Origin: Acidobacteriota bacterium
GTDB taxonomy: Bacteria; Acidobacteriota; UBA890; WLXD01
Reading direction: 5' to 3'
Length of the DNA: 64,000 nt
Assembly: GCA_965205505.1 (NCBI GenBank)
Contig: CBDBHB010000008.1
Coordinates: 512,001 to 576,000 of the forward strand
In this document: piece by piece, positions 18,753 to 47,610 of the stretch
How the letters are laid out: every line of letters begins with the position of its first letter
Numbering within the stretch: the stretch's first letter is position 1
The notes under the pieces: generated by a model
Told to the model about the DNA's origin: nothing
Seen by the model: the letters and a program-made list of their open reading frames with translations, nothing else
The model's database searches: none
Translations under genes and position numbers: made by a program

Positions 18753-20651
18753 CTACCGAACGATCGGTAGCACCACGTAGGAGGCGTGGTCGCCGGCGTG
18801 GTGGATGGTGTTGTACGCCACCACCCACTCTGTCTCGTCGAAGTTGTTTCCCCCGGTGTTCAGGTTGCGATCAAAGCGCGGAAAGCTGGAGCTCGACACC
18901 TCCACGCGAATCCTGTGCTCGGGCCCGAAATAGTTGCTGGTGGCGTGCATATCGACCCGCAAGGCGTATACGTCGCCTGGGCTCATCCACACCGAGCGAT
19001 CGAAGCCCTCCCGGTAGCGCGCTCGCAGGATGCCTTCCTGCACATTGTAGGCGGTGCCGTCCGGATACACGTCGACCAGCTTGACGAGGAAGTCGGTGTC
19101 CCTGGCCGAGGACGATACGTACAGCATCGCCTCGATCGGCCCGGTCACCTCAACGCCCGCCTCGAGCGGCGGCGTCGTGTACACGAGCACATCCTGCCGC
19201 ATCTCGACCTCCCGCTGATCGAACGACCCTCCCTCGGCCTCGGGCGTGCCCGAGCAACAGAAGTTCCCTCCCCGCGACGGCACCGGCGTGGCCGGGTCGT
19301 AGGTGTACCGGTCGGGTGGCTCGTCGCCGGGAGACGCGACCGACAGCGTGCCGCTGCCGAAGCGACTGTTAGCCAGTCCGTCGCTATGCAGGTAGTACTT
19401 GGTAAACCGGGTGTCGGGTACGGGCCACTGCGGCGCGGAGCGCCACTCGTTCCTACCCATCAGGTAGTACTGCACCTTGGGCATCGTGGTGATGCCGTTG
19501 TCCACGCCTGCGAGCCAGTGATCGAACCAATCGACGTAGATCCTCCGGAAATCTTTGCGAGCATCGCCGAGGTCACGCTCCCCGACGATGGTGCGCTGTG
19601 TGGTTCTCTCCGAGCCGCAGTGCGTCGTCGGCGAGATGATCACGAACTGGTTGTCACGCGCGCGGGTGCTCTCGGAGTTGCGCTGCAGCAGGTTGAACTC
19701 GTAGAGGGTCTCGGCAACGCCGTAGTCGTACCAGGAGTTGATGAACAGTGCGGGAACGTCGAAGCGATCCTCGTCGGTCAGGTAGTGGAACTGGTCCCAC
19801 CAGGGGTCGGTGAGCGGTGTCGACACGACACGCTCCCAATCGGTCGGAGGCGTGCGGCCTTTGTTCATCATGTCCACGATGGGCAAGGTCGGCCAGATCT
19901 CCGCGTGATCGATGTCGGGTAGCTTCGGGGCCGGATCGAAGTACTGTGCGTCATCGGACGCGAGCCACTCGCCGCGGTCCAGCTGCGGCGGCGGCGCGTA
20001 GTAGATCTTGTTGCCGCTGCCACGGAACCAGCCGAAGCCGAGAGCAAGCTCGATGGCGCCCCCGTTGATGAGCCCGAAGTAGCGATATCGCCCGCCCGCG
20101 GAACCCACGGCACCGCCTGTGGCCTGCGGGATCATGGCCGCATGATGGGGGCTCCTGAGCGTTGCCTGGAACATCTGGTAGTCGCCCGGCGAGGAGCAGC
20201 CGTAGGTCCCCACCCGGCCGTTGGACCAGGGCTGCGCCGCCAGCCAGTCCACCGTGTCGTAGCCGTCCTCCGCATCGCCGCCGTAGACCAGGAACCGTCC
20301 CTCCGATTCGTACCGCCCACGCTTGTCCTGCACGGCGACCACGTGCCCCCGGCCGGCGAACAGATTCGCCACCGACCGAGGCCGGCTGCGGTAGGCGTTC
20401 TTGTCGTACGGGGTGCGGATCAGAACGGTCGGCAGCCGGTCTCCGGCGCCCTCGGGGAAATACAAGTCGGTGGACAGGCGCACCCCGTCGCGCATCGGGA
20501 CCATGGCGCTTCGTTGTAGACGCACCTGGTACGTCGCGCTCGGCATGTCGTACTGCGCCGGACCGGCGCTCAGCGGCAAGGCCGCGGACTCGACAGAGCC
20601 GGCCGATACCGCGGCCGAGACGAACAGGAGGCCGGAAAGGACACGCCCCAT
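18753..20651 (-). CDS. CocE/NonD family serine hydrolase
   Basis: VPMRDGVRLSTD, QDKRGRYESEG, GCSSPG, SSSFPRFDRN. Confidence 0.92.
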   Translation of the reverse strand: MGRVLSGLLFVSAAVSAGSVESAALPLSAGPAQYDMPSATYQVRLQRSAMVPMRDGVRLSTDLYFPEGAGDRLPTVLIRTPYDKNAYRSRPRSVANLFAGRGHVVAVQDKRGRYESEGRFLVYGGDAEDGYDTVDWLAAQPWSNGRVGTYGCSSPGDYQMFQATLRSPHHAAMIPQATGGAVGSAGGRYRYFGLINGGAIELALGFGWFRGSGNKIYYAPPPQLDRGEWLASDDAQYFDPAPKLPDIDHAEIWPTLPIVDMMNKGRTPPTDWERVVSTPLTDPWWDQFHYLTDEDRFDVPALFINSWYDYGVAETLYEFNLLQRNSESTRARDNQFVIISPTTHCGSERTTQRTIVGERDLGDARKDFRRIYVDWFDHWLAGVDNGITTMPKVQYYLMGRNEWRSAPQWPVPDTRFTKYYLHSDGLANSRFGSGTLSVASPGDEPPDRYTYDPATPVPSRGGNFCCSGTPEAEGGSFDQREVEMRQDVLVYTTPPLEAGVEVTGPIEAMLYVSSSARDTDFLVKLVDVYPDGTAYNVQEGILRARYREGFDRSVWMSPGDVYALRVDMHATSNYFGPEHRIRVEVSSSSFPRFDRNLNTGGNNFDETEWVVAYNTIHHAGDHASYVVLPIVR

Positions 20652-20834
20652 GAATCACCTCCTCGTTGGCTGCCAAGATCCGCACGCCACAGCGGTCAGA
20701 TCTGACCACAGGCTCACCACGGGCTCAACTGGAGACCCGTTGCCTCGCTGGCCGCGACAGCCGTAGTCTCGCCCCCTGCGACCGAGTACATTGGTGTTCC
20801 CCAAGTTCCTCCCCTGCGGCCTCGGCTGCCGACC

Positions 20835-22730
20835 ATGGACACGATGAGAGAGATCTCAGTTGCGACCCGGTCCGGGTCATCCGGGACAGTCCGTGCTCGT
20901 GTCGTATGGATCGGCGTCCTGCTACTGACCCTGTGGGCGGGGTTTCTCTCGGGTCAGCAGGGCTTCCCGCGCAACCAGGCCCTCTATGTGACGATGCGCG
21001 ACGGAGTCAAGATTGCGATCGATGTCTGGTTACCTGCAAGCCTGGAGCCTGACCAGGAGATCCCGACGGTTCTTCGTGCAACGCGCTACTGGCGCGCCAC
21101 CGATACCCGCAGCGACCGGCCCGAGGACGATCGCAACTTTGGCGAGGCGGAGCGCTTCAACAACAATGGGTACGCCCTGGTCCTCGTCGACGCGCGCGGC
21201 AGTGGAGCTTCCTTCGGTACCCGGCCCTATGAGCTCAGCCAAGAAGAGGTGCAGGACTACGGTGAGGTCGTCGATTGGGTCGTCGGGCAGCCTTGGTCCA
21301 ACGGCCGGGTTGGAGCGTGGGGCGTTTCCTACTCCGGCAACACGGCGGAGATGCTGGCCGTAACCGGTCACCCAGCGGTCAAGGCGATCGCACCGCTGTT
21401 CAACGACTTCGACAACTTCGGTCACCTGGTGTTTCCGAACAGCTTGCTCACCGTCGGCTTCCTGCAAGCCTGGGGCGAGGCGGTCCATAACATGGACATG
21501 AACGATATCTGCGCGCTGCGGGATGTGACCGGAGACGCCTGTGCCGAGCTCGAGCAGCAAACGAGTGGCGTAAAGCCGGTCGACAGCGATCATGACCGGC
21601 AACAGCTCGCCGCCGCGATCCGCCAGCATGCCGCCAACACCCAGCCATACTTCGCAGCGCTGGACTACGACTTCCGCGACGACCCCTTCGGCTCTGCCGG
21701 CGTGCGGGACGTTGGCTTCAAGCGCAGCCCTGCCGGTTACCTACCTCAGATCGAGGCGTCGGGAGTAGCGATGTTGATCCGAGTCGGTTGGCTGGATGCC
21801 GCAACCGTCAACGGCGCTCTCGGCCGCTACACGACGATCGATAATCCACAGCTGGTGAAGATCGGACCCTGGGACCACGGGGCTAACAACGACACCGATC
21901 CGTTCAAGCCTGTGGCAACAGCGGTCTCGCCTTCTCGCCAGGCACAAGACGAGGAATTGATCGAGTTCTTCGATCAATTCCTCAAGACAGACACCCCGGT
22001 GACGCCGGCGAGCCGTATCGACTACTACACGATGGGCTCCGGTCAATGGAATAGCACTCAGGTGTGGCCACCCGAGGGGTTTGCGCCTCAGCGTTGGTAC
22101 TTTGCTGCAGGTTCCGCCTTGAGCAGAGACGCGCCGGCACAGGCAACCGGCGCCGACAGCTACGTAGTGGACTTCGAGGCCACCACCGGACGGCACAATC
22201 GCTGGTTCACCAATGGTGGGGCCGGAGACGTGACCTACCCGGACCGTGCGCGAGCGGATCAACGGCTTCTGACGTACACCGGCAGCCCATTGAGCAGCGA
22301 CGTCGAGATCACCGGCCACCCCCTGGTCACGCTCTACGTGGCTTCGACACACAGCGACGGCGCATTCATCGCCTATCTTGAAGACGTCGCTCCGAACGGG
22401 AAAGTGACCTATATCACCGAAGGCGGGCTACGAGCCGTGGTTCGACGCGTGACCGAGGAGCCTCCCCTCTACACGAAGTTCGGACCTCACCGCACGGAAA
22501 GGCGTGCCGACGCCTGGCACCTGATACCGGGAGAAGTCGCCGAGCTGACGTTCGACCTTTGGGCGACGTCCGTCCTTGTGAAGAAGGGACACAGAATTCG
22601 CGTAGCGATCGCGGGAGCAGACCAGGATACGTTCTTTCGCTACCCCAAAGAGGGCGGCACCCCGACGATCACGGTGTACCGGGACCGCTTGCACGCGTCC
22701 CATATCGAGCTACCCGTCAAGGCACGCTAA
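20835..22730 (+). CDS. CocE/NonD family serine hydrolase
   Basis: MRDGVKIAID, DARGSGASFG, GVSYSG; start may lie further downstream. Confidence 0.92.
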   Translation: MDTMREISVATRSGSSGTVRARVVWIGVLLLTLWAGFLSGQQGFPRNQALYVTMRDGVKIAIDVWLPASLEPDQEIPTVLRATRYWRATDTRSDRPEDDRNFGEAERFNNNGYALVLVDARGSGASFGTRPYELSQEEVQDYGEVVDWVVGQPWSNGRVGAWGVSYSGNTAEMLAVTGHPAVKAIAPLFNDFDNFGHLVFPNSLLTVGFLQAWGEAVHNMDMNDICALRDVTGDACAELEQQTSGVKPVDSDHDRQQLAAAIRQHAANTQPYFAALDYDFRDDPFGSAGVRDVGFKRSPAGYLPQIEASGVAMLIRVGWLDAATVNGALGRYTTIDNPQLVKIGPWDHGANNDTDPFKPVATAVSPSRQAQDEELIEFFDQFLKTDTPVTPASRIDYYTMGSGQWNSTQVWPPEGFAPQRWYFAAGSALSRDAPAQATGADSYVVDFEATTGRHNRWFTNGGAGDVTYPDRARADQRLLTYTGSPLSSDVEITGHPLVTLYVASTHSDGAFIAYLEDVAPNGKVTYITEGGLRAVVRRVTEEPPLYTKFGPHRTERRADAWHLIPGEVAELTFDLWATSVLVKKGHRIRVAIAGADQDTFFRYPKEGGTPTITVYRDRLHASHIELPVKAR

Positions 22731-23498: not shown

Positions 23499-24047
23499 AT
23501 GGAGAACAAGGTGATGGCTATCAACAAGGCAGTTCGTGACGGACTCCAAGCAGAACAAGCAGACGTTGCGGATGAGATGGCTCAGCTTGAGGCACGGCTG
23601 CAGTGGCTCAAGACACGACAGGACGCCCTCCACTTAATCCTGCAACAAGAGGCAGCACCTCCGGAACAAAAGGCGGCACCGGACGCCGGACTGCGCCGAC
23701 TCAGTGTTCGTGATGCGGCCCGAGCGGTACTCAAGGAGGCTGGGGCGCTGAAGCCTTCGCGGGTCACGCAGATTCTGCGCGATCGTGGCTATCAGCTCAA
23801 AGGAAAGATGAAGCCGGGTGCGCGTGTCGGGCAGGAGCTTTGGGCGATGGCCAAGTCGGGCACGCTGAGCAAGAACTCCGCTGGAGAGTACTTCTTGCCC
23901 GGTGAGGAACAAGACGAACCGAACACGGCTGCGCCACCGCCGCCCAGCTCCGATGAGGATGCCTCAGCCGTTGTCCGGAACGAATCAGCCGGCGCAACAG
24001 GTGCGGACAGCGGTACCGAGGCAGAAGGGTCAGGAGCATCGAGTTGA
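23499..24047 (+). CDS. Hypothetical protein, coiled coil plus putative winged-helix DNA-binding domain
   Basis: N-terminal heptad helix then LSVRDAARAVLKEAGALKPSRVTQILRDRGY. Confidence 0.55.
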   Translation: MENKVMAINKAVRDGLQAEQADVADEMAQLEARLQWLKTRQDALHLILQQEAAPPEQKAAPDAGLRRLSVRDAARAVLKEAGALKPSRVTQILRDRGYQLKGKMKPGARVGQELWAMAKSGTLSKNSAGEYFLPGEEQDEPNTAAPPPPSSDEDASAVVRNESAGATGADSGTEAEGSGASS

Positions 24048-24873: not shown

Positions 24874-25159
24874 CGCCGTTTCCAGGGCGAAAATTAACAA
24901 ACAGTTAACAAAACGGTCGCGAATTCGTCGTCGGTGGCGGTGATGATGCTGTTTGCCGACGGAGACATCGTCCGCTCGATGCAGCGGGCCGATACGGCAT
25001 AGCAACCGTTACGGGCCCTTTTCACCGAAGTCCGACCCGGCGCGCGTACGGACCCGACGCTTAGAGGTGACCCGGGAGGGTCCCGACGGCCTCGGCGATC
25101 GGATTCTTTACCGTGAGGATGAGCCCCGACTTCGCGATGTCGCACCGGGCCGCTCCTAC

Positions 25160-25720
25160 GCGTTCGATGGTGACGGCCATTACTTCCTGCTCATCATGGA
25201 CGACTGGCTGCTCATGCCCTTCATCACCACCGAGCGGCGCAAGATCCTCAAGGTCATCGAGGATCGCCACGAGCTTGCCTCAACGTTGATCGCCTCCCGC
25301 CTGCCGATCCCAGCCTGGCACGAGGCGCTGGCGAACCGACGGTCGCGGGCGCGATCTGTGACCGCCTGATCCACGCGGCTCACAAGATCCAGCTCAAGGG
25401 CTGCTCGATGCGTGAGATCCGCGCCCAGAGTCGATCGAAAAGCTAGTCGATGACGCCCGTCGCTGCGCTCCGATCCCGAACGCCGCCTCAGGGCCGTGGA
25501 TCCTGCCTGGCCTGTAGAAAACGCTGCGCGTTTACCACCGATCCTTGGGCGGCGCTGCGCGCCGCAGCACAGTTTCCACAGTCCCCCACGGCTACTACTC
25601 CTGCAACCCCGACTCCCAAGCAGATAAGCTACTCGTCGCTTCACTCCGATGGTGTGATCCCGTTCAGCCGAAACTGCTGATTACGTTGCACCGAAACGAG
25701 CGATCACGTTCCCCGAAATA
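25160..25720 (+). mobile_element. istB: IS21-family remnant (degenerate istB 3' part and right end)
   Basis: LLIMDDW...IEDRHELASTLIASRLPIPAWH and DRLIHAAHKIQLKGCSMR; three GATyaCGTT..CCGAAA repeats at about 23-bp period (25656-25719); terminal CA absent. Confidence 0.82.
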
Positions 25721-25827
25721 GGCTGTGCCCGCCTTCGACGAAGGGTAGAGCGTGGAGGTGGCACTCAGAAAGCGCTGAGGACGGATCGTTTTCCCGCAGC
25801 CTGCTCGAGCACAACGGAATACGCTGT

Positions 25828-27402
25828 ATGGCCAAGCTACGCCGACTTCTAACACATGGGTACCTCCCTGAGGAGTTGCCGCAAGCCTTCAACAGCAACT
25901 CCTTTGGCCGACTACTTGGGGTAGCGAGCGCGAGTCCGCAACGAGGCTTCTATCGAACAAGGGGCAAAAAACTTCCTGTATATGAACTGGCCCGCCACAA
26001 CATCGCGCGCGCCGGTCAACTACGACGAGTTCTTTCGATCCCGAACCCTCTCGGACACTACTCTCTGGCACGTGAGATCGCCGTTAATTGGGAGCCCATT
26101 CAATCTCAATGTCGACGGAGTTCTCTTTCCCGAACCACGCCGTTGGCGGTGGACCAAGGTCCCCGGGCACTCATGTCCGAGACAGGAATCGAAGATCGGG
26201 TCCGACTTCGAGCTAGGTACAGAGCAACTGGCGGGTACCTTCTACGTGCGGACATCCAGAGCTTCTATCAATCGATCTACACGCACTCCATCCGCTGGGC
26301 GCTCTACGGTAAGGTCAAAGCAAAGCAGAACCGTTATGGACGCAACTTAGGCAACAATCTCGATTATTGGATTCGCCAAGCACAGGATCAGCAGACCAAG
26401 GGCATTCCTATCGGGCCCGACACCTCGTTGGTTATCGCAGAGATCGTGTTGAGTGCTGTCGATGAGGCTCTCGAAAAGAAGCTCGGTCGCGTCGTGGGAT
26501 TCAGGGCAATCGATGACTACGAACTCGCCTTCAAATCGCGAGACGAGGCCGAGGGAGCACTCGCCGGCCTCCAGACAGAGCTAATGCGCTTCGAGCTCCA
26601 ACTCAATCAGAACAAGTGTTCTGTACACCCACTGCCGGAGCCTATCACGCCGCTATGGACGACACAGTTGCGCACCTTCAAGATCCGATCGACTAGTCGC
26701 GAGCAGATCTCGGACCTCATGGAGTTCTTCAGCTTGGCGTTCGAACTTTTCCAACAATTCTCCGCTTCGTCGATACTACGATACGCAATTGGGCGGACAA
26801 GCAATGAGAACATCGACCCGGCGGCATGGCCCGTCTACCAAGATCTCCTGCTTCAGTGCGCCACTTCCGAGTCAGGCACCATCAGGTGGGTGCTTGCAGA
26901 GCTAGACCGCTACGCGAGCAATAGCGGGTGCTTGGATCACGACCGCATCCAACAGATGCTCACCGGTCTCATTACTCGCCATCTGCCCCTTGGCCACGGA
27001 AGTGAGGTGGCGTGGGCCATCTGGACCGCCATCAAACTAAAGATCAGGCTCGGGCATGAAGCGAGCGTCGATCTGACTCAAATGGAGGATCCTCTAGTAC
27101 CCATCCTGGCACTGGATGCGGACGCAAGAGGGTTGTTTGACTCTCATCTGGATAAGGGCCCGTGGAGCGCTATGATGACCGTGCAGGATCTCCACGGCGC
27201 GAATTGGCTGCTCGCCTACGAGGCTAGCGTTCAGGGGTGGCTTCCCTCCGTGGGAACACGCGATCACATAAAAGACTCGAGAGGATTTTCTTATCTGCGT
27301 CGGAACGATGTCCGCTTCTACAATCGCGCCGCGTCCGCTCGCTACATCAAGACGTGGCCGAGTCGGTTCACATTCTCGCAGCTGATTGGCTATGGCATCT
27401 AG
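25828..27402 (+). CDS. Class 1 Abi/UG-type reverse transcriptase (AbiK/Abi-P2-like) with alpha-helical C-terminal domain; probable anti-phage protein
   Basis: 524 aa; GYLPEELP, RADIQSFYQSIYTHSIRWA, GIPIGPDTS..IAEI, catalytic region FRAIDDY, LQLNQNK. Confidence 0.88.
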   Translation: MAKLRRLLTHGYLPEELPQAFNSNSFGRLLGVASASPQRGFYRTRGKKLPVYELARHNIARAGQLRRVLSIPNPLGHYSLAREIAVNWEPIQSQCRRSSLSRTTPLAVDQGPRALMSETGIEDRVRLRARYRATGGYLLRADIQSFYQSIYTHSIRWALYGKVKAKQNRYGRNLGNNLDYWIRQAQDQQTKGIPIGPDTSLVIAEIVLSAVDEALEKKLGRVVGFRAIDDYELAFKSRDEAEGALAGLQTELMRFELQLNQNKCSVHPLPEPITPLWTTQLRTFKIRSTSREQISDLMEFFSLAFELFQQFSASSILRYAIGRTSNENIDPAAWPVYQDLLLQCATSESGTIRWVLAELDRYASNSGCLDHDRIQQMLTGLITRHLPLGHGSEVAWAIWTAIKLKIRLGHEASVDLTQMEDPLVPILALDADARGLFDSHLDKGPWSAMMTVQDLHGANWLLAYEASVQGWLPSVGTRDHIKDSRGFSYLRRNDVRFYNRAASARYIKTWPSRFTFSQLIGYGI

Positions 27403-27538
27403 TTCGGCGTCTCCGACTCTCGTGACGATTGACCTTGCCCCGCTTTCCCGGACACTTAGTTAAGATCCATTGTCGTAGTCGTGACCTGCCCCCCAAAGCT
27501 GGACACATCAAAACGAGAAAATCTCGGGGTATGAGTGC

Positions 27539-28390
27539 TCATCCTTCGGCAACCTGTTGGAGCTGTTGGACATACACAGCCGGAGCTAGATATCCCAAGG
27601 AAGAATGCGGTCTCGTTTCGTTGTACTCCCGGCGCCACCCCTCCAGCTGTTCCTGGGCCTCAGAGAGGCTCAGGAACCAGCTCTGGCTCAGACACTCGTC
27701 CCTGAGTTTGCCGTTGAAGCTCTCGATGTAGCCGTTCTCGACCGGTCGGCCGGGGCTGATGAAGTCCAGTTGGATACCGGCCGTGTAGGCCCAAGCGTCG
27801 AAGTGGTTGGAAGTGAACTCCGTGCCGTTGTCGAGCGTCAAGGCGATCGGCGCACCTCGTTGCGCCACGACCTTCTCGAGCACGTCCGTGACTCGCCTGG
27901 AGGGCAGCGACACGTCCGCCTCCAGCGCTAGGCATTCGCGGCTGTGGATGTCGATCACCGTGAGCACGCGGAACCTCCGGCCGTTGGCCAGAGCATCGCT
28001 GACGAAGTCCAGACTCCACCGCTCGTTGGGTGCCGACGGGGCCGGCAGATGAGCCCGCGGCCGCGCCGCGACCTTTCGCCGACGGGGTCGCGTTCGTAAC
28101 TGCAGTCTCTCCTGCTGGTAGAGCCGCAGCACTCGCTTGGCGTTGATCTTCCAGCCCTCCCGGCACAACAGCACATGCAATCGTCGATATCCGTAACGCG
28201 GCCGGGCCGCCGCCAGGTCGCGGATTCTGAGTCGCAGTGCCTCCTGCGGATCTTTTCGGTGCCGATAGTAGAAACTGCTGCGCTGAAGTTGCATCAGCCC
28301 GCACGCGCGGCGTGTCCCGATCTGGTACCGCTGTCGGGTTTGACGCACCAGCTGGCGCTTGCGCGCGGGCCTCAGACTTTTCTTGCCAGC
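27539..28390 (-). CDS. IS3 transposase OrfB (inner IS)
   Basis: WSLDF, DNGTEF, ENGYIESFNGKLRDE; A-run frameshift window at end of orfA. Confidence 0.9.
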   Translation of the reverse strand, partial: AGKKSLRPARKRQLVRQTRQRYQIGTRRACGLMQLQRSSFYYRHRKDPQEALRLRIRDLAAARPRYGYRRLHVLLCREGWKINAKRVLRLYQQERLQLRTRPRRRKVAARPRAHLPAPSAPNERWSLDFVSDALANGRRFRVLTVIDIHSRECLALEADVSLPSRRVTDVLEKVVAQRGAPIALTLDNGTEFTSNHFDAWAYTAGIQLDFISPGRPVENGYIESFNGKLRDECLSQSWFLSLSEAQEQLEGWRREYNETRPHSSLGYLAPAVYVQQLQQVAEG

Positions 28391-28638
28391 ACATCCTGGA
28401 GGATCTGCTTGTCCAATCTCAGATCGGCTACCAGCTTCTTGAGTTGACCGTTCTCCCGCTCCAGCTCTTTGAGCCGTCGCAGCTCGCTCGGCGCTAACCC
28501 CCCGTACTTGCTGCGCCACCGATAAAACGTCTGCTGGCTGACCCCGTACTTGCGGCACAACTCCGGAATCGGTACGCCGAGCTCCACCTGCTTGATCGCC
28601 GTGACGATCTGCGCGTCGCTGAATCGGGACCTCTTCAC
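28372..28638 (-). CDS. IS3 transposase OrfA (inner IS)
   Basis: KRSRFSDAQI...ELCRKYGVSQQTFYRW HTH. Confidence 0.92.
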   Translation of the reverse strand: MKRSRFSDAQIVTAIKQVELGVPIPELCRKYGVSQQTFYRWRSKYGGLAPSELRRLKELERENGQLKKLVADLRLDKQILQDVLARKV

Positions 28639-28659
28639 GAGTTTCTCCTCCTCTTTCGA

Positions 28660-29682
28660 TTACGGAGATTTTCTCGCTTCGATGCGTCCAGTTTCCAGGG
28701 GCAGGTCAGTCGTATTAGCGGCTGTGGGAGCTGTTGGCAACGCGGAGCGTTGTCCAAGCGACGGTGGAAATCGGGAGTCGATTTCCACGGGCGCGTCAGC
28801 TTCCACAGCTGATTGGCCGCTCTGGCCTGGCCGCCGCATTGCCGCCTCGAACTGAGCCGGACTCTGGTCTCCGATCGAGGTGTGCATGCGAGCCCGGTTG
28901 TAGAACACTTCGATGTAGTGGAACAACTCGGCTCGGGCCGCCGCCCGGGAACTGAAGCAGCCACCGAGTTGGAACTTCAGGGTAGAGAAGAAACTCTCCA
29001 TCGGCGCGTTATCCCAGCAGTCTCCTTTCCTGCTCATGCTGATGGTGAAGCCACGGTCACGCAGCTTGTCTAGGTAATCGTCGCTGCTGTACTGGCTGCC
29101 GCGGTCGCTGTGATGGAGCACTCCGGAACCGGGACGGCGTTGCTCCAAGGCCTGATCCAGGACCGCCAGCGTCAAATCGTCCGTCATCGTCTCGCTCACC
29201 GCCCAGCCGATGATCCGTCGCGAGCACAGATCCATCACCACGGCCAGGTATAGCCATCCTTCCTGCGTCCACAGGTATGTCAGGTCGCCCACCCAGACGC
29301 TGTCCACGGCATCCACCGTGAAGCGCCGTGCCAGCACGTTGGGCGCCGCTGACCGGCCAGGTGTGGGCCGTGTTGTCACCCGGAACCGACGGGGTTGGCG
29401 AGCTCGAAGTCCTTCCTGGCGCATCAGCCGAGCTACCCGCTTGCGAGAGCAGCGGATCCCTCGTTGCCGAAGTTGCTTGTGGATGCGCGGACTTCCGTAA
29501 CGGTCGCGGCTCTCTCGGAATGCAGCTCTGATCTGCACACGTAGACGGCGATCTTCTCGCGCTCTCGGGCTCGGCCCCCTTCCTCGCCACTCGTAGTAAC
29601 CGCCGTGAGACACCTCGAGCATCTTGCACAACCGCCGCACCGGGAACTTGCCGGACAGTTGCTTGATGATCGGGTACTTCAT
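28660..29682 (-). CDS. IS3 transposase OrfB (outer IS), C-terminus altered by nested IS
   Basis: WVGDLTY, HSDRGSQY, CWDNAPMESFF; ATGA overlap with orfA. Confidence 0.9.
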   Translation of the reverse strand: MKYPIIKQLSGKFPVRRLCKMLEVSHGGYYEWRGRGPSPRAREDRRLRVQIRAAFRESRDRYGSPRIHKQLRQRGIRCSRKRVARLMRQEGLRARQPRRFRVTTRPTPGRSAAPNVLARRFTVDAVDSVWVGDLTYLWTQEGWLYLAVVMDLCSRRIIGWAVSETMTDDLTLAVLDQALEQRRPGSGVLHHSDRGSQYSSDDYLDKLRDRGFTISMSRKGDCWDNAPMESFFSTLKFQLGGCFSSRAAARAELFHYIEVFYNRARMHTSIGDQSPAQFEAAMRRPGQSGQSAVEADAPVEIDSRFPPSLGQRSALPTAPTAANTTDLPLETGRIEARKSP

Positions 29683-29972
29683 CGCGGGCGTTCCGAGAAG
29701 ATCGCCAACGCTTTTTTTAGAATGTCGCGCACCTGCCGTACTCGCCGCACGTCCCGCCGTAGCTGTTGCCCGTCCAGGTCCTGGTCGGGCATCTTCCCCG
29801 CGCCCGGAAACGCCGTGACCCCCTGCTCCTGGAGCTGTTTGCGCCACTTGGTCAACATGCCGCGGCCAACACCCAGATCCCGGGCCACCTCAGACACCGG
29901 ATGGCCCAGCTGCGTCACCATCCTCACTGCCTCAATCTTGAACTCGCGACTGTACCGCCGTCGTGACCCCAT
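29679..29972 (-). CDS. IS3 transposase OrfA (outer IS)
   Basis: RRRYSREFKIEAV...VARDLGV; DILKKALAIFS. Confidence 0.92.
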   Translation of the reverse strand: MGSRRRYSREFKIEAVRMVTQLGHPVSEVARDLGVGRGMLTKWRKQLQEQGVTAFPGAGKMPDQDLDGQQLRRDVRRVRQVRDILKKALAIFSERPR

Positions 29973-30348
29973 GCTTCACCTCCGAGCCCATTATCGGGCT
30001 TCCAAAGGTGTCCGGGAAATCGGGGGAGGCCCAGATGTCGATCTGCTGGTCGAGATCGAAACCGGCCCCGGTCGTAGGCCTGTAGCTCGTCCAGGTAGCG
30101 CGTCAAGTGATCGGCGCGCCGCGAAGCCGGCGGCCCTCATCGCCTCCGGAGCGACGTCGCCGCGCTGGATCGGCGGCGCCAGGCCGCCAGGGCCACCGAC
30201 GACGACGACTCGCGCAGTACCGGTCGATGAAGGCTTCGAAGCACCCGCCCGCCGCGGCGTACTGAGGCTCCGGCCCCTCGTGACGCGTAGGTGCGGGGCA
30301 GCGCACCGCGTACGGATCTCGTTACGGACGTTCCTCCGCCCGTGGGGC

Positions 30349-37312: not shown

Positions 37313-38566
37313 CTAGACAGGGCGCAGCATCGGCACCACCTTGCCGCCCTCAGCACTCAGGTAGGCGGCCCAGTCTTCCATCAGCTTCCGGCGCCGCTCC
37401 AGCAGGTCCGAGCGCGCATAGGCCGCCTCGGTCGGGTCGCGCACCGCATGCGCCAGCGCCGCCTCCATGACCGCCCGCGGTGCGTTGGTGCACTCCGCCG
37501 CCCAGTCCCGGAACGATGAGCGAAACCCGTGCGGTACCGCTTCAATACCCAGCTGCCGCAGCACCCGGGAAAGCGTTGCGTCCGCCAGCGGCCTGCCGGC
37601 CCGTGCGCCGGGAAACACCAGCCCCTCGCCATCCCTGAGCCCCCGCGCCTGGCGCAGGATCTCCATTGCCCGGCCCGATAGCGGTACCCGGTGCGCCCGG
37701 TTCGACTTCATGCGCTCGGGTGCAAGAGTCCACTCCCTCGCCTCCAGGTCCATCTCCTGCCAGGTAGCCAACCGCACCTCGCCGGAGCGGGCCGCCGTCA
37801 ACACCAGAAACTCCAGGGCCAGCTTCACCACCCCGGAGGCATCCGAAGCCCGTACCGCCTCGATCGCACCGTCCACCTCGGCATGCGGCAACGCCCGCAT
37901 ATGCTGTCGCCGCTTGCGGTGCCGTGGCAGCGCCTGGGTGATCGCCTCACCAGCCGGGTTGTCGCCACGGTACCCCTGCGCCATGGCCCACTTCATCACC
38001 GCACCGATGCGCGCCCGCACCCGCCGTGCGGTCTCGGCCTTGTCATGCCAGATCGGACCCAGTACCTCCAACACCTCGGCCGTCGTCACCTCCGACACCG
38101 GCATCTCACCGATGCGCCCGTACGCATAGGTGCGCAACTCCGTTTTCCATTGCGCCGCATACTTGGCGTTGCGCCACCCGGGGCGGTGCATCTCATACAC
38201 CTTGGCCGCTGCTTGCGCGAACGTCGGCATGCCCTCGGCCCGGCGCTTGTCTGTCAGCGGGTCACCGCCGGCACGGGCCAGCTTGCGGTTGGCAAATGCC
38301 ACCTCGCGCGCCTCCGACAGCGACACCAAGGGGTAGCCTCCGAGACCCAGTTCCCGGCGACGGCCCTGGATCACGATCCGCTGTACCCAGCTGCGCGCTC
38401 CGCTCGGGATCACGTTCAGGTACAGGCCGTGTCCATCGCAGTACCGGCCCGGCTTCATTACCGTGCGTACGAACGCCGCCGACAGGGCCCGCTCCGGGTG
38501 CTTGCCGCTCTTGCGCCGAGGGCTGGGTTTCGGTGCAGTTGCTTGCGCATCGGCGATATTCTGCAT
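37313..38566 (-). CDS. P4-like tyrosine integrase with Arm DNA-binding domain
   Basis: DGHGLYL, LGLGGYPLVSL, TAARSGE, HGFRSSFRDW, ALAH, AYARSD; catalytic set intact. Confidence 0.95.
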   Translation of the reverse strand: MQNIADAQATAPKPSPRRKSGKHPERALSAAFVRTVMKPGRYCDGHGLYLNVIPSGARSWVQRIVIQGRRRELGLGGYPLVSLSEAREVAFANRKLARAGGDPLTDKRRAEGMPTFAQAAAKVYEMHRPGWRNAKYAAQWKTELRTYAYGRIGEMPVSEVTTAEVLEVLGPIWHDKAETARRVRARIGAVMKWAMAQGYRGDNPAGEAITQALPRHRKRRQHMRALPHAEVDGAIEAVRASDASGVVKLALEFLVLTAARSGEVRLATWQEMDLEAREWTLAPERMKSNRAHRVPLSGRAMEILRQARGLRDGEGLVFPGARAGRPLADATLSRVLRQLGIEAVPHGFRSSFRDWAAECTNAPRAVMEAALAHAVRDPTEAAYARSDLLERRRKLMEDWAAYLSAEGGKVVPMLRPV

Positions 38567-40063: not shown

Positions 40064-40147
40064 GCCGAGGTGGCGGAATTGGCAGACGCGCCGGACTCAA
40101 AATCCGGTGGGCTTACGCTCGTGAGGGTTCGAGTCCCTCCCTCGGTA
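40064..40147 (+). tRNA. tRNA-Leu(CAA)
   Basis: GCCGAGG/CCTCGGT acceptor, GGCGGAATTGGCAGACGC D-arm, CCGGA-CTCAAAA-TCCGG, long variable arm, GGTTCGAGTCC; CCA not encoded. Confidence 0.95.
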
Positions 40148-40919
40148 CTTTTGTATAATCAGCGACTTACAGACGATTAGGCAGCGGGCCTGTCGCCCCT
40201 GATTTCTCGTTTCGGACACCAAATCGGACACCTTCTGTGTCCTCGGATCCCGCTCAAGGAAGCGCAGCTCGGCCCCTAGAATACCGAAACTGGCAGAAAG
40301 CAGTATGAGGTCATCCGACGAGACACGGAGACCGCTCGTCACGATTTCGACTCGGATCACGTAGCGTGGGACGGTAGTGGCTTCGCGTTTACCAAGTACG
40401 GTGGCCCGGGCCGGCCTCCACTGCCGCTGGAGCAGACATATCCCACTCAAGGGCAGCCCGCTGATCAGCGGGCGCCGGTCCCTTTCGGAGTCATGCTCTC
40501 GGGCGGCAGAAGTCTGTCCGGGCGGACCCTTTGCTTCCAGGCCGGGAGTCTCACAGTCCCTTTTCTACTTGCCGTTACGAACCCATCACAACGCGATCGT
40601 GACTGCATGCGAGACAGAGGCAACATGGACCGCAAATCGCGTTCGTTGGTGGACTGGTCCAAGACCCTTGTACGCGCCGCCGATGGAGAGCAAGATCGTT
40701 AGGCTAAGCGCTCTCCGGACTTCAGCCACCCGAGTGCAGGTCAGCCTAGTCCCAGCCCCGCGGCGATCTGAGCAACCAGACCTCCGATCGAGGACACATC
40801 GCCAGAAACGCGCGCTAAGGAAGACCGGGTGAAACACGAGGACGCGGTGGAGGCCTGCCACAGCCTTCGGCGTCTCGCGTACAAGGGAGGTCAAGGGAAA
40901 AGCTCTGGAACAGGGAGTC

Positions 40920-40992: not shown

Positions 40993-41099
40993 CTGCGTCC
41001 AGAGGCCGAAGGTCCTCCCCGAGTGCTCCGGGTGCTCGTGCGGCGAGTTCCGGGTCTCACTTCAGCCGGTTTTGAACCGCCGTGTGTAAACTACCGTCC

Positions 41100-42554
41100 A
41101 TGGAGAGTATTTGGTCTCGATGGAGCACGGTCGCAACGTTACTGGGGGCTGGCGCGACGGTGGGCGCTCTTTACTACATCATGGCCCAGTCTGCACCTGG
41201 GTGGCTTCGCACGGTTGTTCTAATCCTATCGATATCGCTCATTGTCGGCGGGGTTCTCACGGCGCTCTATCTCTCTTGGGATCCTGTTCAGGCGGCGGTG
41301 AAAGTCGTCGCAGGAAACTGGCCAGAACGCGTGTTTTGGTCCGGTGTCGCGTTCGTCACGACAGGCGGTTTCCTGCTGGTTGTCTACTACGGTGTGATCC
41401 GTCCCGTAACGAGTTCTTCCAACTCACCGGCGCCACGCACCGTGTCCGATGCCGAGAACGAAAACCGCGGATCTGAGGACCAGCCTGCAACCGTCCCGGC
41501 GGATCCAGCGCCCGAGGAAGTCCTGGAAATCGATCAAGATCGTGTCGAGGCGTTTGACCAAACCGTTTTCGCAGGTACCGGCGACGCGGCGTACGACGGA
41601 GATGGAGGACCCGCAGTTCAAGCCGATCTGTGGGGGCCGCGCGGAATCGATGTTGATGCGGGCGGCAACGTCTATTTCGCGGCGGAAGGGAATCACGCGA
41701 TTCGGAGAGTGGACACCGACGGCATCATCACAACGATCGCCGGCAACGGAACAGGTGGCTGCGGAAAAGCCGAAGGGAGGGCGCAAGAGGTCCAACTACT
41801 AGCGCCGAAGGACGTCGCCGTTGACAGTCACGGCTTCGCCTTCATCGCCGACCCGAACTGCAACCGAGTGCTCCGGGTCGACGCGAACGGGACGATTACC
41901 AAGGTTGCGGGTACCAGCACGGCAGGCTTCAGCGGGGACGGAGGTCCAGCCACGGCAGCCCAGCTGGACGGTCCGTACGGTGTGGCGATCGATCACCAAG
42001 GGGCCGTGTACATAGCGGATCTCCACAATCAGCGGATCCGGCGAGTCGATCCCTCGGGCAGAATCTCGACAGTCGCAGGAACCGGCACCGCCGGATTCTC
42101 TGGAGACGGCAAGCAGGCTACCGACGCGACCCTCAACGACCCTCTCCGAGTCGCGGTGGACGCTGACGGCAGTATCTACATCACCGACCGTGGCAACCAG
42201 CGCATTCGCAGGGTCGACGCTGCAGGCATCATCGAGACCGTCGCCGGGAACGGCTCCCGAGGATTCTCTGGCGATGGGGGTTCGGCAATTCTCGCGCAAC
42301 TCAATGATCCCTCGTACGTCGAGCCCCTTGAGGAAGGCGCTTTCCTGATCGCCGATCATCTGAACAACCGGGTCCGACATGTCGACTCGTCGGGCCTGAT
42401 CACCACCTATCTCGGCGGCGAGCCGGATGAGGGGCACGAGGGGGCTACAGCTGTGCGCTTTGATGGAGTAATGGGCGTGGCCGTTGCCCCCGCCGGCAAC
42501 ATCTTCGTTTCCGAGAGCAATCGCCATCGAATCCGAAGACTCTCGGCTCAATGA
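41100..42554 (+). CDS. Membrane-anchored NHL-repeat (teneurin-like) beta-propeller protein
   Basis: Three TM helices then repeats of TVAGTG.AGFSGDGG.A..A.L..P..VAVD. Confidence 0.88.
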   Translation: MESIWSRWSTVATLLGAGATVGALYYIMAQSAPGWLRTVVLILSISLIVGGVLTALYLSWDPVQAAVKVVAGNWPERVFWSGVAFVTTGGFLLVVYYGVIRPVTSSSNSPAPRTVSDAENENRGSEDQPATVPADPAPEEVLEIDQDRVEAFDQTVFAGTGDAAYDGDGGPAVQADLWGPRGIDVDAGGNVYFAAEGNHAIRRVDTDGIITTIAGNGTGGCGKAEGRAQEVQLLAPKDVAVDSHGFAFIADPNCNRVLRVDANGTITKVAGTSTAGFSGDGGPATAAQLDGPYGVAIDHQGAVYIADLHNQRIRRVDPSGRISTVAGTGTAGFSGDGKQATDATLNDPLRVAVDADGSIYITDRGNQRIRRVDAAGIIETVAGNGSRGFSGDGGSAILAQLNDPSYVEPLEEGAFLIADHLNNRVRHVDSSGLITTYLGGEPDEGHEGATAVRFDGVMGVAVAPAGNIFVSESNRHRIRRLSAQ

Positions 42555-42695
42555 CTGACGCTGTGACGATCGCACGGACGATCCACCCGCCGACGGCGCA
42601 AGCCAGTCTGTCGGCGAGCACGCCATACCGCTTCGAGTGGTCAGCTTGCTCCAGGACGTCTTTCGGTATTGCGCAAGTATATGCCGCGACGTCCT

Positions 42696-43037
42696 CTAGT
42701 ACTCGTTCCTGAGCATCATCACGCCGTCAACACAGTAGAACGAGAATTCCTGCATTGGGAAGTCGGTGTACGGAATCGACTGCTCCACGATGACGGGTTC
42801 GCCAGTGTCTTCTTTAGCACACACGACAGCGCTCCGGTCTTCCTCGACCGCAAGCTCCCAAAGCTGGAATGGAACTCTCCTGAGCTGCGGCTGATAGCTT
42901 CCCACCAAATCAATGAGCCAGTAGCACTCCGCCTGATCAGCCAAGTACTTTATCCCATCGGTAAACAGCAGTCCCGTGTAGTTCCGGTAGTACTGCGTCG
43001 TTCCAATGAAGCCAGCTAGCTCATCCTCCAGTCCCAT
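42696..43037 (-). CDS. DUF6876 family protein
   Basis: GFIGTTQYYR..LLFTDGIKYLA...YWLIDL...Q.IPYTDFP...MLRNEY. Confidence 0.82.
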   Translation of the reverse strand: MGLEDELAGFIGTTQYYRNYTGLLFTDGIKYLADQAECYWLIDLVGSYQPQLRRVPFQLWELAVEEDRSAVVCAKEDTGEPVIVEQSIPYTDFPMQEFSFYCVDGVMMLRNEY

Positions 43038-43102
43038 AACTGCTGCAGAGCTCTTGGACGTTATAAAGCCCACGCCGTCAACTAGTACCTGTGGGAGAAG
43101 CT

Positions 43103-43255
43103 TCAAGACGCAATTACATCGGCTTCGTCCTCTTGCTGCTGCACGTGGTGTTCGATTGCCGAGATAATCTGTTGTCGAATGCTCACTCCTGTGCGTTCGC
43201 GTATTCGGTACATGGCACAAATCAGTGGCGGCGGGATGACCAGGCTGTACGTCAT
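43103..43255 (-). CDS. Small ribbon-helix-helix-like protein
   Basis: 50 aa; YSLVIP strand, helix, TGVSIRQQI..AI; Shine-Dalgarno (SD) GGAGG. Confidence 0.55.
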   Translation of the reverse strand: MTYSLVIPPPLICAMYRIRERTGVSIRQQIISAIEHHVQQQEDEADVIAS

Positions 43256-43341
43256 CTTCCTCCCTCCACAGTCGCAAGCTCCTGCTCGTGCAGGTACGCC
43301 ACGTAGACTTCCCGTACATCCTGCCAAAACGTCTGCCACAT
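43252..43341 (-). CDS. Small hypothetical peptide (29 aa)
   Basis: MWQTFWQDVREVYVAYLHEQELATVEGGR; GAGGAG upstream; ATGA overlap with next gene. Confidence 0.4.
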   Translation of the reverse strand: MWQTFWQDVREVYVAYLHEQELATVEGGR

Positions 43342-43359
43342 GAGCGGATCTCCTCGACG

Positions 43360-43587
43360 TTATAAGTAACTCTGGAAGACGAACCTAGTGCCCATCTTAA
43401 AGGCACTTCGCTTCTCTGCTCTCGTAATCAACAACTTCACCTTCAAGCCTAGTTCATCTGTTGGCGCTGCAATAACAAGCTGGCTCTCCGTTGGCTTTAC
43501 CTCGCACGTCCGCTGATCACATCTACGGAATCTTCTCCAAACTTTTTCTTCTTCTTTGCGGATTCTCTCCACTATTTCCTTCTTCAT
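43360..43587 (-). CDS. Hypothetical protein
   Basis: 75 aa; GAGGTGA SD 6 nt before ATG. Confidence 0.6.
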   Translation of the reverse strand: MKKEIVERIRKEEEKVWRRFRRCDQRTCEVKPTESQLVIAAPTDELGLKVKLLITRAEKRSAFKMGTRFVFQSYL

Positions 43588-44564
43588 TACCTTTCACCTC
43601 TGTTGTATTCGCTTTCCGACCCCAAAAGGGTGGGCCTCTTCGGGCCTTCTCCGACCAAGAGGGTCCGCCTGCCGATATGTCTTTAGGCCGTTAGGCCGAC
43701 CGGAGAGCAGCGGGGAGCGTCGTGGAGGGGAAAGACTTACGTGCAGGCGGAGAATCTATAACCAGCTAGACAAACACTTGGGCAGCCTGACTCGTTGGGA
43801 GCCTTTTGTGCGGTAGAACTCGGCATCATCACTGGAGCTGCGTGACGTTCCGTGTAGACACATGCAGACTGCGTCAGGACAGAAACTGGCGGGAGCCATA
43901 TCACCCTTCGCGGCTCTAGGCCATATGCTTCAAACCGAACCCGCAGAGAGCAATAGCCGCGACCCTCATGCCCCTTCGTTCCGACAGAGAGAAGATCATG
44001 TCCCGAAACAATAACCACGAGATTCGGTTCGAAGATCAGAACCGCGAAGGCAGAAATGCCTCCCGTTGGCAGCAGGAGTGTGCCGCAAGAGACGCGGTCG
44101 TTTTCCACGCCGTGAGACCGCGCGCCTAGGACGCTCCGAGCAAGCGGGCGTCAGCAGACACCGTTGGTAAATTCGATCTACAACGGCCTTCTCTGCTTGA
44201 CTCGGTCCATTTCAAGTTAACAGATGAAGCTTATGATGAAACAAAGACCTGTATACAAAATTGAAGAAAAACCACATTATCAAACAGAAACGCTATGGGC
44301 TGATAGTTATACTTAATGTTTCCTGCTTCTTTCATGTAATATACAGTGAACTTGACAATAGTTATTACGTAACTACTATTATTCTATTGTTAGAGACGAG
44401 ACTGATTTCCCACCTCACCACTACGCCACCCGTCCCCCTGGGGTGTTATTAGATGTATTTAAGTTTTGTAATGCAGATTAGTAGCTAGTCTGTCGTCAAT
44501 ATCATCGAACCTCTACGCTTTTTCTAGTTGATAGAAATCGTTACTCATGATGGCAACAGATAAC

Positions 44565-44765
44565 TCATCCTTTAGCTGCTGCCGGCCTTTGCACGCTCTC
44601 ACTGAACCGTGACGCCTGGAGAATCTCAACTCCAATCAGGTCGCCGTTCTCATCCAATTCGACATTGACCCCTGGGACAATCTCTTCAAAACTCTCCTGC
44701 TTGCCCTCTTTCACTAGTATGAAGAGAGAGTCAGATTCTTCGTCGTAGTTGTATTGCTTACTCAT
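44565..44765 (-). CDS. DUF2283 family putative antitoxin
   Basis: YDEESDSLFI...VELDENGDLIGVEILQAS. Confidence 0.88.
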   Translation of the reverse strand: MSKQYNYDEESDSLFILVKEGKQESFEEIVPGVNVELDENGDLIGVEILQASRFSESVQRPAAAKG

Positions 44766-45048
44766 TCTTCGTCCACCTCTTGTTAGCAATTCGGTTGATC
44801 ATCTGTTCTTCCCGTATCGGATGTATCGTTATAATTTCGACAGTATCATTCTTGTTGTAGGCAATCATCATCTGTCGCATTTTGCTGTTGTATTCCAAGC
44901 GCTTGATAGCGATAAGCGTCCGCTCGACCGTATCAAAGAACTTCTGGTCGGGCTCTTCCAAGACGAGCCTGGGATACTCACGCGGTATCCTCCGGGCCTT
45001 CAATCTCAGCTCTAGATGGCTCGTGTAAACAACTCTTGCCCTTTGCAT
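44758..45048 (-). CDS. DUF4258-like (BrnT/RelE-fold) putative toxin
   Basis: YTSHLELRLKARRI...EPD...IITIHP; overlaps DUF2283 gene. Confidence 0.75.
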   Translation of the reverse strand: MQRARVVYTSHLELRLKARRIPREYPRLVLEEPDQKFFDTVERTLIAIKRLEYNSKMRQMMIAYNKNDTVEIITIHPIREEQMINRIANKRWTKNE

Positions 45049-45181
45049 CTCTTGTAGATCGCTGAGTCTATAAAGCTATCGATTGCGAAAATCAGAGCGA
45101 GCGTCGTTCCAGTAGCTCCATTCTACTACCCGAACAGGCCGGGCCGGCCGGGCGTCACTGGACTTCCACTGAAGACGGGAC

Positions 45182-46507: not shown

Positions 46508-46796
46508 TGTTCTGGAACAGCCGCTTGTGTAGAGCGAGCACGTCTTTGAAGCACTTGATTTCTTCGAGTAGCTTGAGCCTCTTCGTGTCGTTCAACTTCT
46601 TGATGAGTTCCTCGGATTCCCGTTCCAAACGCTCGATTTCCTCATCATGAAGTTGTTCCCTGTTACGGATTAGGTAGCTGATTACATCTCTCAGCTCAGC
46701 CCCGCTCGCCGTCACCTTGAGTAGCTCGTCGATGGCGTGCCTTCTTTGCTTATCGTTGTTTGTAACGTCCTTCCTTGACGTTGCTTTGTCTTCCAT
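46491..46796 (-). CDS. Hypothetical helical protein, overlapping the ATPase start
   Basis: 101-aa charged helical ORF. Confidence 0.6.
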   Translation of the reverse strand: MEDKATSRKDVTNNDKQRRHAIDELLKVTASGAELRDVISYLIRNREQLHDEEIERLERESEELIKKLNDTKRLKLLEEIKCFKDVLALHKRLFQNNEREH

Positions 46797-46989
46797 CTTG
46801 TATCAGGAATCGATAGAGAATCTCCGTTCTTAAGCTTTATAGTGCATCCTGCACTTCTCAGGGCCATTGAAACGCGTTAGCTGACCATTTGCAGGCGTGC
46901 CAGGCCTTCGGCTTCGATCGACTTGAAATTGGGTGAAGCCGTTATATAGTCCCCCCGCATTTACAACGACAGGAAAAGGGGATCACCTA

Positions 46990-47437
46990 ATGACCGAGGT
47001 AACGCTCACAAGGCCAACGAAACCTATGATGGAGGCTGTCAACGCTTCTTATCGCCGGCAACCAACAAGCGGTGGATGGGTTTGTGAAGCAGCACAAGCT
47101 AGACCGCCAGCTATTAGACAGATACGTGGCGAAGCGTGCGGGTAAGTCTTACGGCCTTACGCGTCAGAAGCGAGGCAAGAAGAAAGCCACGAAGAAGAGA
47201 GCGAAGAAAGCGCCGCCTCACGCTGAGGTACAAGATGTCCTGACGATGCTCGACCGCCGAACCAAGGTAGCTACGCTGCTAAGGTTGCAGGCCAAGGTAG
47301 CGGACTTAATCGCTCAGAAGGACGCGGAAGAGGTCGCCGCCATGCAGAGCACTCTCAAAAATCTCGAGAAGTTTCGCGAGCAGGCAGACGCGGCCGCCAA
47401 GAAGGTGAAGGACGCAGAAGCTCTACTAGGGATGTGA
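46990..47437 (+). pseudogene. Basic coiled-coil protein, apparent single-base frameshift near 47047
   Basis: MTEVTLT...VNA then LIAGNQQAVDGF...KRGKKKATKKRAKK in next frame. Confidence 0.5.
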
Positions 47438-47610
47438 GTCCCGACCGTCCAGCGTCCATCAAGCGCACACCCTACTTCTTTAACGTCGACTACTACCCGC
47501 GGACCGAGTACGAAGAATCATCTCCGGTACAGCGAAGGACGCGGGAATGCTCGTGATCTGCCATAGGCTGCTGGCCACGAGCGCGGCGCGCGAGGAGTTG
47601 GCCGATTACA

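Follow-up and report, generated by a model that had tools for sequence, protein, structure and literature searches.

We examined a stretch of 64,000 nucleotides (nt) from an Acidobacteriota bacterium (assembly GCA_965205505.1, contig CBDBHB010000008.1, positions 512,001 to 576,000 of the forward strand), which is called the window below, and concentrated on one gene in it, which encodes a reverse transcriptase (RT) of 524 amino acids (aa). In the list of open reading frames (ORFs) of the window this gene starts with ATG at 25828 and ends with its stop codon at 27402 on the forward strand; the frame is open for 573 codons from stop to stop, and no start codon precedes that ATG. The translation reads ADIQSFYQSIYTHS at residues 141–154, GIPIGPDTS at residues 192–200 and GFRAIDDYELAF at residues 224–235. 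Remnants of insertion sequences (IS) and of other genes surround the RT gene, and the coordinates of all these features are collected in Table 1.

Table 1. Features of the RT gene and of its surroundings in the window. Conservation is counted over 324 aligned sequences (rows), namely the query RT, its relatives from protein databases and the RTs encoded in loci of GTDB species representatives, with rows shorter than 450 aa and the 7 of 80 loci in which the script found no RT frame left out. "Branch" means the 58 rows that group with the query. Equivalences between DRT4 and query residues were counted from the printed HMMER alignment to the DRT4 chains.
Feature	Position	Strand	Evidence or conservation
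DRT6/UG12 RT gene, 524 aa	25828..27402	+	ORF, PADLOC, PDB sequence match, AlphaFold2 model, Foldseek
RT domains: fingers/palm; alpha-helical repeat domain; C-terminal tail	residues ~1–285; ~286–500; 501–524
Glu118 (= DRT4 priming Tyr125)			not conserved; column K 59, E 49, R 45 and others
Asp142, catalytic Asp of motif A (= DRT4 Asp149)	26251..26253	+	D in 324/324 rows
His153, YTHS motif (= DRT4 His160, proposed RNase pair)	26284..26286	+	H in 324/324 rows
Asp179 (= DRT4 Asp192, other half of the proposed RNase pair)	26362..26364	+	D in 324/324 rows
Motif C, A227-I228-D229-D230, codons GCA ATC GAT GAC	26506..26517	+	sequence; Ala227 replaces DRT4 Tyr238
Ala227 (= DRT4 Tyr238)	motif C		labile column
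Asp229 (= DRT4 Asp240)	motif C		D in 324/324 rows
Asp230 (= DRT4 Asp241)	motif C		D 309, N 10, E 5 of 324 rows
Tyr319 (= DRT4 Tyr337, second stacking Tyr)	26782..26784	+	Y in 57/58 branch rows and 237/266 others
Branch-typical C-terminal tail, residues 501–524, with Trp510, ending ...QLIGYGI (Tyr522)	27328..27399	+
IS21-family istB remnant, N-terminal part lost, frameshifted near its end	24953..25446	+	Pfam IstB_IS21
Outer IS3-family element, transposase ORFs 28660..29847 and 29679..29972	27438..30025	-	rve/HTH_21 domains
Inner IS3-family element, ORFs 27539..28558 and 28372..28638	27477..28707	-	inserted into the end of the outer element
HsdM N-terminal fragment (methylase of a type I restriction-modification system), 105 aa	33790..34107	+	PADLOC MTase_I, 86.6 bits, profile 2–99 of 491
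P4-type tyrosine integrase	37313..38566	-	Pfam Arm-DNA-bind_3, Phage_int_M, Phage_integrase
tRNA-Leu(CAA)	~40064–40148		Rfam, gathering thresholds

The RT gene is a full-length, intact, single-gene member of UG12, also named DRT6, within the class 1 UG/Abi RTs, and we assign it there because the sequence profiles, the solved structures and the predicted fold all agree. Among the PADLOC models, Drt6 (PDLC03748) gave 536.9 bits over residues 2–509 (profile positions 2–488 of 511), and other UG-derived models gave 268.9 bits (Drt4 PDLC03752, from UG15), 196.7 bits (UG30) and 157.8 bits (UG14). In the search of the PDB by sequence, the best match was 9wy8 (242.9 bits, residues 1–502), and the DRT4 chains scored 115 bits. 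An AlphaFold2 model built from 120 sequences has a mean predicted local distance difference test (pLDDT) value of 94.1 and a predicted template-modelling score of 0.92, and its C-terminal half is helical from about residue 290 to residue 492. When this model was submitted to Foldseek, the top match was again 9wy8, entitled "Cryo-EM structure of the hexameric DRT6", with template-modelling (TM) scores of 0.89/0.94, a root-mean-square deviation of 2.3 over 506 columns and 32% identity; the TM scores were 0.79–0.80 for DRT4/UG15 and 0.64–0.70 for AbiK. Pfam gave only a weak RVT_1 match (33.2 bits).

Other classes of RT were examined by the same searches. Membership of AbiK or Abi-P2 was rejected for want of a full-length profile match, similarity being confined to the palm region: PADLOC AbiK gave 121.6 bits over residues 123–271, AbiP2 was likewise partial (residues 137–266), and the PDB chains of AbiK and Abi-P2 gave 52–59 bits over residues 134–270. 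The profile of group II intron RTs (TIGR04416) reached 34.4 against a cut-off of 300 and that of the retron St85 RT 22.6 against 235, and Rfam found neither intron RNA nor retron RNA. Two further PADLOC models labelled Drt4, PDLC02177 (530.7 bits) and PDLC02179 (508.1 bits), nearly equal the Drt6 score; given that the NCBIfam Drt4 equivalog stays below its cut-off (250.4 bits against 450), this is an ambiguity of annotation. We also note that automatic annotation may call genes of the UG12 type DRT4 through these two models.

An initial annotation, made from the sequence alone, had described an intact RT of 524 aa with the motifs quoted above, and the ORF and its translation agree with that description, as do the AIDD codons, for which a change from TAY to GCA takes two to three base changes. 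The long helical C-terminus that it noticed appears in the AlphaFold2 model at the high confidence given above. Its placement of the protein among stand-alone class 1 UG/Abi RTs of the protein-primed, template-independent kind is borne out by the profiles and the fold, with the activity itself ascribed by analogy, and its proposal of a single-gene anti-phage system is very probably right, again by analogy, through membership of DRT6. Its suggestion of a possibly uncharacterised subclade holds in part: the query stands in a sub-branch without a known tested member, but the family as a whole is UG12, or DRT6, which that annotation did not name, and is characterised. Nesting within a characterised DRT or Abi type, which the same annotation had named as evidence against its reading, is what PADLOC, the PDB search and Foldseek indicate.

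For the active-site residues we used the equivalences with DRT4. Reports on DRT4 describe Asp149, Asp240 and Asp241 as catalytic and metal-binding, Tyr125 as the priming residue, conserved in 174 of the 174 systems examined there, and Tyr238 (the Tyr of YIDD) and Tyr337 as the residues on which the 3'-terminal nucleotides of the product stack; a preprint assigns an RNase site to His160 and Asp192, switched on by phage single-stranded DNA-binding protein (SSB) together with dGTP (10.64898/2026.10.21.760695). Table 1 lists the corresponding residues of the query. At the position of the priming Tyr125 the query has Glu118, and Ser117 and Thr119 beside it are, like Glu118, not conserved in the family. 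The Tyr that DRT4 has at the position of Ala227 stacks on the 3' base, so that the query keeps just one tyrosine of the stacking pair, Tyr319. The sequence of the query shows no sign of decay: of 100 columns in which 90% or more of the other branch members agree, the query differs in two (L59I and T264C), and the median for those members is three.

The first position of motif C, occupied by Tyr in the canonical YxDD, is labile throughout the family. In a set made up of the query and the 119 database sequences that match it best, 47 have Ala at this position, 41 Tyr, 8 His, 7 Ser and 6 Phe, and Arg226 and Asp229 are invariant in the same 120 sequences, with RAIDD occurring 15 times and RAVDD 21 times. 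Over the 324 rows the counts are Y 158, A 48, F 44, H 24, S 14, Q 6, W 6, V 5, N 4 and R 4, and since Tyr occurs in only 158 of them, its absence from the query does not speak against UG12, for which Tyr is not a defining residue. On a FastTree tree built without that column, at least 87 changes are inferred at the position, and nine when the residue is scored simply as Ala or non-Ala. Fifty-eight rows, the query among them, form a branch with a support of 100 and a stem of 0.277; at this position 45 of them have Ala, 6 Ser, 2 each Leu and Met, and 1 each Tyr, Ile and Trp. This branch has fixed residues of its own, with Pro425 present in 100% of its rows and 0% elsewhere; Glu358 and Gln19 also mark it, as does a tail that carries Trp510. 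In the HMMER alignment, motif C of 9wy8, the DRT6 that has been solved and tested, is YVDD.

Because Ala is the majority residue in the branch and the position is labile across the family, we regard AIDD as a trait of the lineage and not as a lesion. The initial annotation had treated AIDD as an oddity of this allele and had asked whether the homologues share it; they do not carry YxDD throughout, and with Ala in 45 rows of the branch AIDD is no oddity of this allele. Its further idea that loss of the Tyr may alter priming confuses two residues, for DRT4 primes from Tyr125, which lies far from motif C, and Tyr238 stacks the 3' end. Because the motif C Tyr of DRT4 stacks the growing 3' end, any effect of the loss would, by analogy, be on the handling of the product, and Ala227 may change the length or the composition of that product.

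In 7 of the 58 branch rows, on two separate twigs, the second catalytic Asp is replaced by Asn to give AIDN (P0003, P0004, P0006, P0009, P0011, P0016 and P0030). These rows are 51–89% identical to one another and keep all other key residues intact, and they include P0004 and P0011, the closest sisters of the query. An Asp-to-Asn change at motif C is expected to cripple polymerisation in canonical RTs. Its occurrence in the closest sisters shows that the polymerase site has been under unusual evolution in the branch of the query.

These observations raise the question of whether the Ala branch, which has AxDD and, in the sisters closest to the query, AIDN, differs in function from other DRT6 enzymes, its polymerase site having been remodelled with loss of the 3'-stacking Tyr and the putative RNase pair and the branch-specific tail having stayed fixed. 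Such a variant would yield another product, one that is shorter, differently biased or an adduct of primer length, or it would use the polymerase site mainly as a sensor, with killing by His153 and Asp179. The clear separation of the branch, the loss of the Tyr in 57 of its 58 rows, its own fixed residues, and the AIDN rows maintained on two twigs despite their divergence all point in this direction, as does the reported contact of the DRT4 motif C Tyr with the 3' end of the product. On the other side, a position that has changed at least 87 times and that accepts F, H, S, Q, W and V may simply tolerate residues other than Tyr, the query retains Tyr319 and all three catalytic Asp, and the evidence is entirely comparative, from sequences. 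We therefore regard this reading as unlikely, though it is the strongest of the alternatives; if it is true, the DNA made by the AxDD branch would differ from that of other DRT6 enzymes, or the addition of nucleotides would serve solely to switch an RNase effector.

The C-terminal tail was considered in the same connection. Trp510 occurs in 78% of the branch rows, and 92% of the other rows have a gap there; in the model the tail (residues 501–524) has pLDDT values of 74–91. The idea that the tail Trp substitutes for the lost stacking Tyr was rejected by a test with independent pairs on the tree (n = 15), in which 2.7 pairs changed in the same direction, 4.0 in the opposite direction and 8.3 were unchanged (median p of 1); this lack of co-variation between the loss of the aromatic residue and the tail Trp also counts against a functionally distinct branch. 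As a separate observation, the tails of UG12 proteins vary but often end in Tyr: of the 314 tails that are 10 aa or longer, 183 have a Tyr among their last six residues, a count that averaged 114 ± 8.3 and never exceeded 143 when these tails were shuffled 1000 times, and 70 tails have Y and 39 have F at the very end. The tails of some relatives end in acidic runs plus PF or DF, in a way reminiscent of the C-terminal tips of SSB. The UG12 tail could be an element for docking or priming.

The RT gene is of foreign origin and was acquired horizontally. It is present in one copy in its own genome, a search of 40 relatives, among them 4 congeneric ones, gave no match at E<=1e-10, and its GC content is 0.562 against 0.62 for the window. 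The locus formed by istB and the RT gene was recovered, at low depth, as identical pieces in contigs from a run of a second study (X3; six pieces, 0 differences). The family extends across many bacterial phyla and some archaea, with at least 549 confirmed stretches among the 578 matches listed, and it comprises 1067 cluster representatives at E<=1e-30. Records of mobile elements gave no close relative: there was no match among phage records at E<=1e-20, the 10 matches among plasmid records were all at most 34% identical, and the 6 loci from IMG/VR were 27–39% identical.

No conserved partner gene was found next to the relatives, as the initial annotation had also proposed for this gene when it listed no partner ORF: among the loci of GTDB species representatives (73 usable of 80 kept), no neighbour cluster was seen in more than 5 of the 73, and the Rfam scan of the window at gathering thresholds yielded only the tRNA-Leu, with no RNA family near the RT gene. 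None of these 73 loci belongs to the Ala branch. Among 80 metagenome loci motif C was recognised by pattern in 33, and one of these, L082, has Ala; it is the sole branch member for which flanking sequence was obtained. The RT of L082 (3424–4998 of that locus) has 524 aa, is 49% identical to the query and carries AIDN. Between 454 and 8485 the locus holds type I restriction-modification genes (hsdS with a GIY-YIG domain and a split hsdM) on one side of this DRT6-type RT, and a type II-A retron (an NDT_II-A effector at 285 bits plus an RT) with an OLD-like TOPRIM gene on the other. These surroundings are a defence island, and by analogy they would lend indirect support to an anti-phage role of the query.

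The surroundings of the query itself are dominated by IS elements and broken genes, in agreement with the debris that the initial annotation had noticed. The istB remnant upstream matches IstB_IS21 in the ORF 24953..25369 (28.7 bits, profile 156–204 of 238) and, as read from the sequence, continues in another frame up to the TAG at 25444–25446, in a stretch that we take to resemble the C-terminus of IstB. The outer IS3 element, which begins 36 nt past the RT stop codon, is bounded by an inverted repeat of 18 nt (27438–27455/30008–30025, 94% complementary), and the inner one by an inverted repeat of 44 nt (27482–27525/28665–28708). All four runs compared contained contigs in which 28708 follows directly on 27476, with the 1231 nt in between missing and the position ambiguous by 6 nt, and this joint indicates that the inner element is missing from other copies of the outer element. 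An IS-like fragment is also present in the variable region downstream of the RT gene, and the HsdM fragment is what is left there of a second defence system. The statement of the initial annotation that the RT gene is the only intact gene apart from the IS genes stands firmly for about 24.9–30 kb only; further upstream there are small unannotated ORFs such as 23499..24047, which has no Pfam or PADLOC match.

The RT gene and the P4-type integrase may be parts of one island. A search of the window for repeats at the island borders gave only short, imperfect two-copy matches, and in G004, a genome of the same genus, the genes that flank the region on either side are separated by 46 kb and their order is reversed. 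Several side observations concern the same region. To the left of the variable region, at 18753–22730, there are two divergent paralogous genes for X-Pro dipeptidyl-peptidases (S15) of 631–632 aa; the right-hand one has 94% DNA identity in G004, where it is 46 kb away from the segment with MscS and tRNA-Leu, with the order reversed. The 3' end of the tRNA-Leu(CAA), about 60 nt, is repeated many times in the same-genus genomes G002 and G003, and contig 33 of G002 holds more than 10 partial copies within about 45 kb, a pattern expected of serial integrations at this tRNA. Downstream of the tRNA, positions 41000–50000 of the window have a low GC content of 0.46–0.54 and encode DUF6876, a DDE transposase and a HerA/TraG-like ATPase (PADLOC mad8 54 bits, HerA 46 bits).

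Taking these results together, we consider, with a probability of roughly 80%, that the gene encodes an intact DRT6 (UG12) single-gene anti-phage RT that was acquired horizontally and now lies in a decaying island ridden with IS elements. According to Mestre et al. (2022; PMC9226505), UG12, named there DRT type 6, gives Escherichia coli moderate protection against the phages T5 and ZL-19, and the protection is abolished by mutation of the RT site. For the DRT6 of Sphingopyxis sp., the article by Wang et al. in Nat Commun (PMC12783706) reports an oligomeric protein that acts by abortive infection and makes template-independent DNA covalently attached to itself; it is toxic when T5 DNA-binding protein ORF55 is co-expressed or sbcB is deleted, and the dead mutant used was D223A/D224A. 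The DRT4 reports likewise describe a single-gene abortive-infection system, triggered by SSB-like proteins of phages.

By analogy with DRT6 and DRT4, the query protein would form a hexamer of two trimers, which would constitutively make short single-stranded DNA without a template, starting on a hydroxyl residue of its own and keeping the product covalently bound. On infection a phage SSB would bind the tethered DNA, might also bind the helical domain in its C-terminal part, and would bring about a toxic state. This state could be an accumulation of single-stranded DNA or, as proposed for DRT4, the action of an RNase site to which His153 and Asp179 would both contribute. The infected cell would then stop growing or die before phage is released.

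Several points weigh against this interpretation or against parts of it. No experiments on the query protein or on any member of the Ala branch were found in the literature; the query is only 32% identical to the Sphingopyxis DRT6 and has AIDD against its YVDD; and its closest sisters carry AIDN. The alignment points to no priming residue, because the column of Tyr125 and its neighbours are variable in UG12. The invariance of His153 and Asp179 fits the RNase model but does not prove an RNase site, because His153 sits in the YTHS motif of the polymerase core. The version of the protein in the public database (P0001) has only 409 aa from an internal Met start and misses the first 115 residues (25828–26172); these are alignable with all relatives, and we hold the form of 524 aa to be the real one because the relatives align from residue 1 (for example P0004, with 1–524 on 1–526). 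Lastly, the istB remnant cuts the upstream region about 380 nt before the RT start codon, and a simple promoter scan of 25300–27600, a weak guide for this host, gave one site inside the gene and none upstream, no more than shuffled sequences gave.

The istB remnant and the lack of a promoter-like site upstream also suggest that the gene may be a stranded, silent relic, intact but unexpressed after IS insertions removed its promoter, and heading for decay. The nested IS3 elements so close to its stop codon and the HsdM fragment and other broken genes nearby fit such a history. Against it stand the open frame of 524 codons, the divergence from the branch consensus, which is average for the branch, the retention of all catalytic residues, and the second-study contigs without differences, which indicate that the locus is stable in the population. 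IS ends, moreover, often carry outward promoters. A silent relic thus appears improbable, slightly more so than a functionally distinct Ala branch. That the RT is a DRT4 (UG15) and not a DRT6 is very improbable and was rejected, because the NCBIfam cut-off is missed and both the PDB sequence search and Foldseek favour DRT6, the UG15-derived PADLOC model also scores low, and the Tyr125 reported in all 174 DRT4 systems examined aligns with Glu118, so that only the scores of PDLC02177 and PDLC02179 speak for it.

Read as an intact DRT6, the gene itself is one more member of this type in an environmental bacterium, and its use is comparative. The DRT6 family tolerates Ala, Ser, His and Phe at a position where nearly all RTs keep Tyr, and one branch has fixed Ala. 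The Ala branch and its AIDN sisters are natural variants suited to two questions, namely what keeps the product in place in a polymerase that uses no template, and by what coupling DNA synthesis leads to toxicity.

Comparison with the known systems places the query nearest to the Sphingopyxis DRT6 (9wy8), with which it shares the full-length sequence match, the fold, the size, the order of domains without a thumb and the stand-alone gene, as well as the motif A Asp, the motif C Asp pair, the YTHS His and the LD Asp. Apart from the divergence in identity and motif C already mentioned, it is unlike that protein in standing in a separate branch with fixed residues of its own and a structured tail ending in ...QLIGYGI. 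With the E. coli DRT4/UG15 (9vdo, 9vdv, 9l9s and 21ou) the query has the architecture in common and, by analogy, probably the hexamer, and the equivalents of Asp149, His160, Asp192, Asp240, Asp241 and Tyr337 are all found in it; it differs in its identity of 24–25%, its TM scores of 0.79–0.80, its score below the NCBIfam Drt4 cut-off, and in having Glu118 for the priming Tyr125 and Ala227 for the stacking Tyr238. AbiK (7r06/7r07) and Abi-P2 (7r08), which are protein-primed, template-independent class 1 polymerases, resemble the query in combining an RT core with a helical domain (TM 0.60–0.70), but the similarity in sequence is limited to the palm with 16–18% identity, and the helical domains and the oligomers are different, Abi-P2 being described as a trimer.

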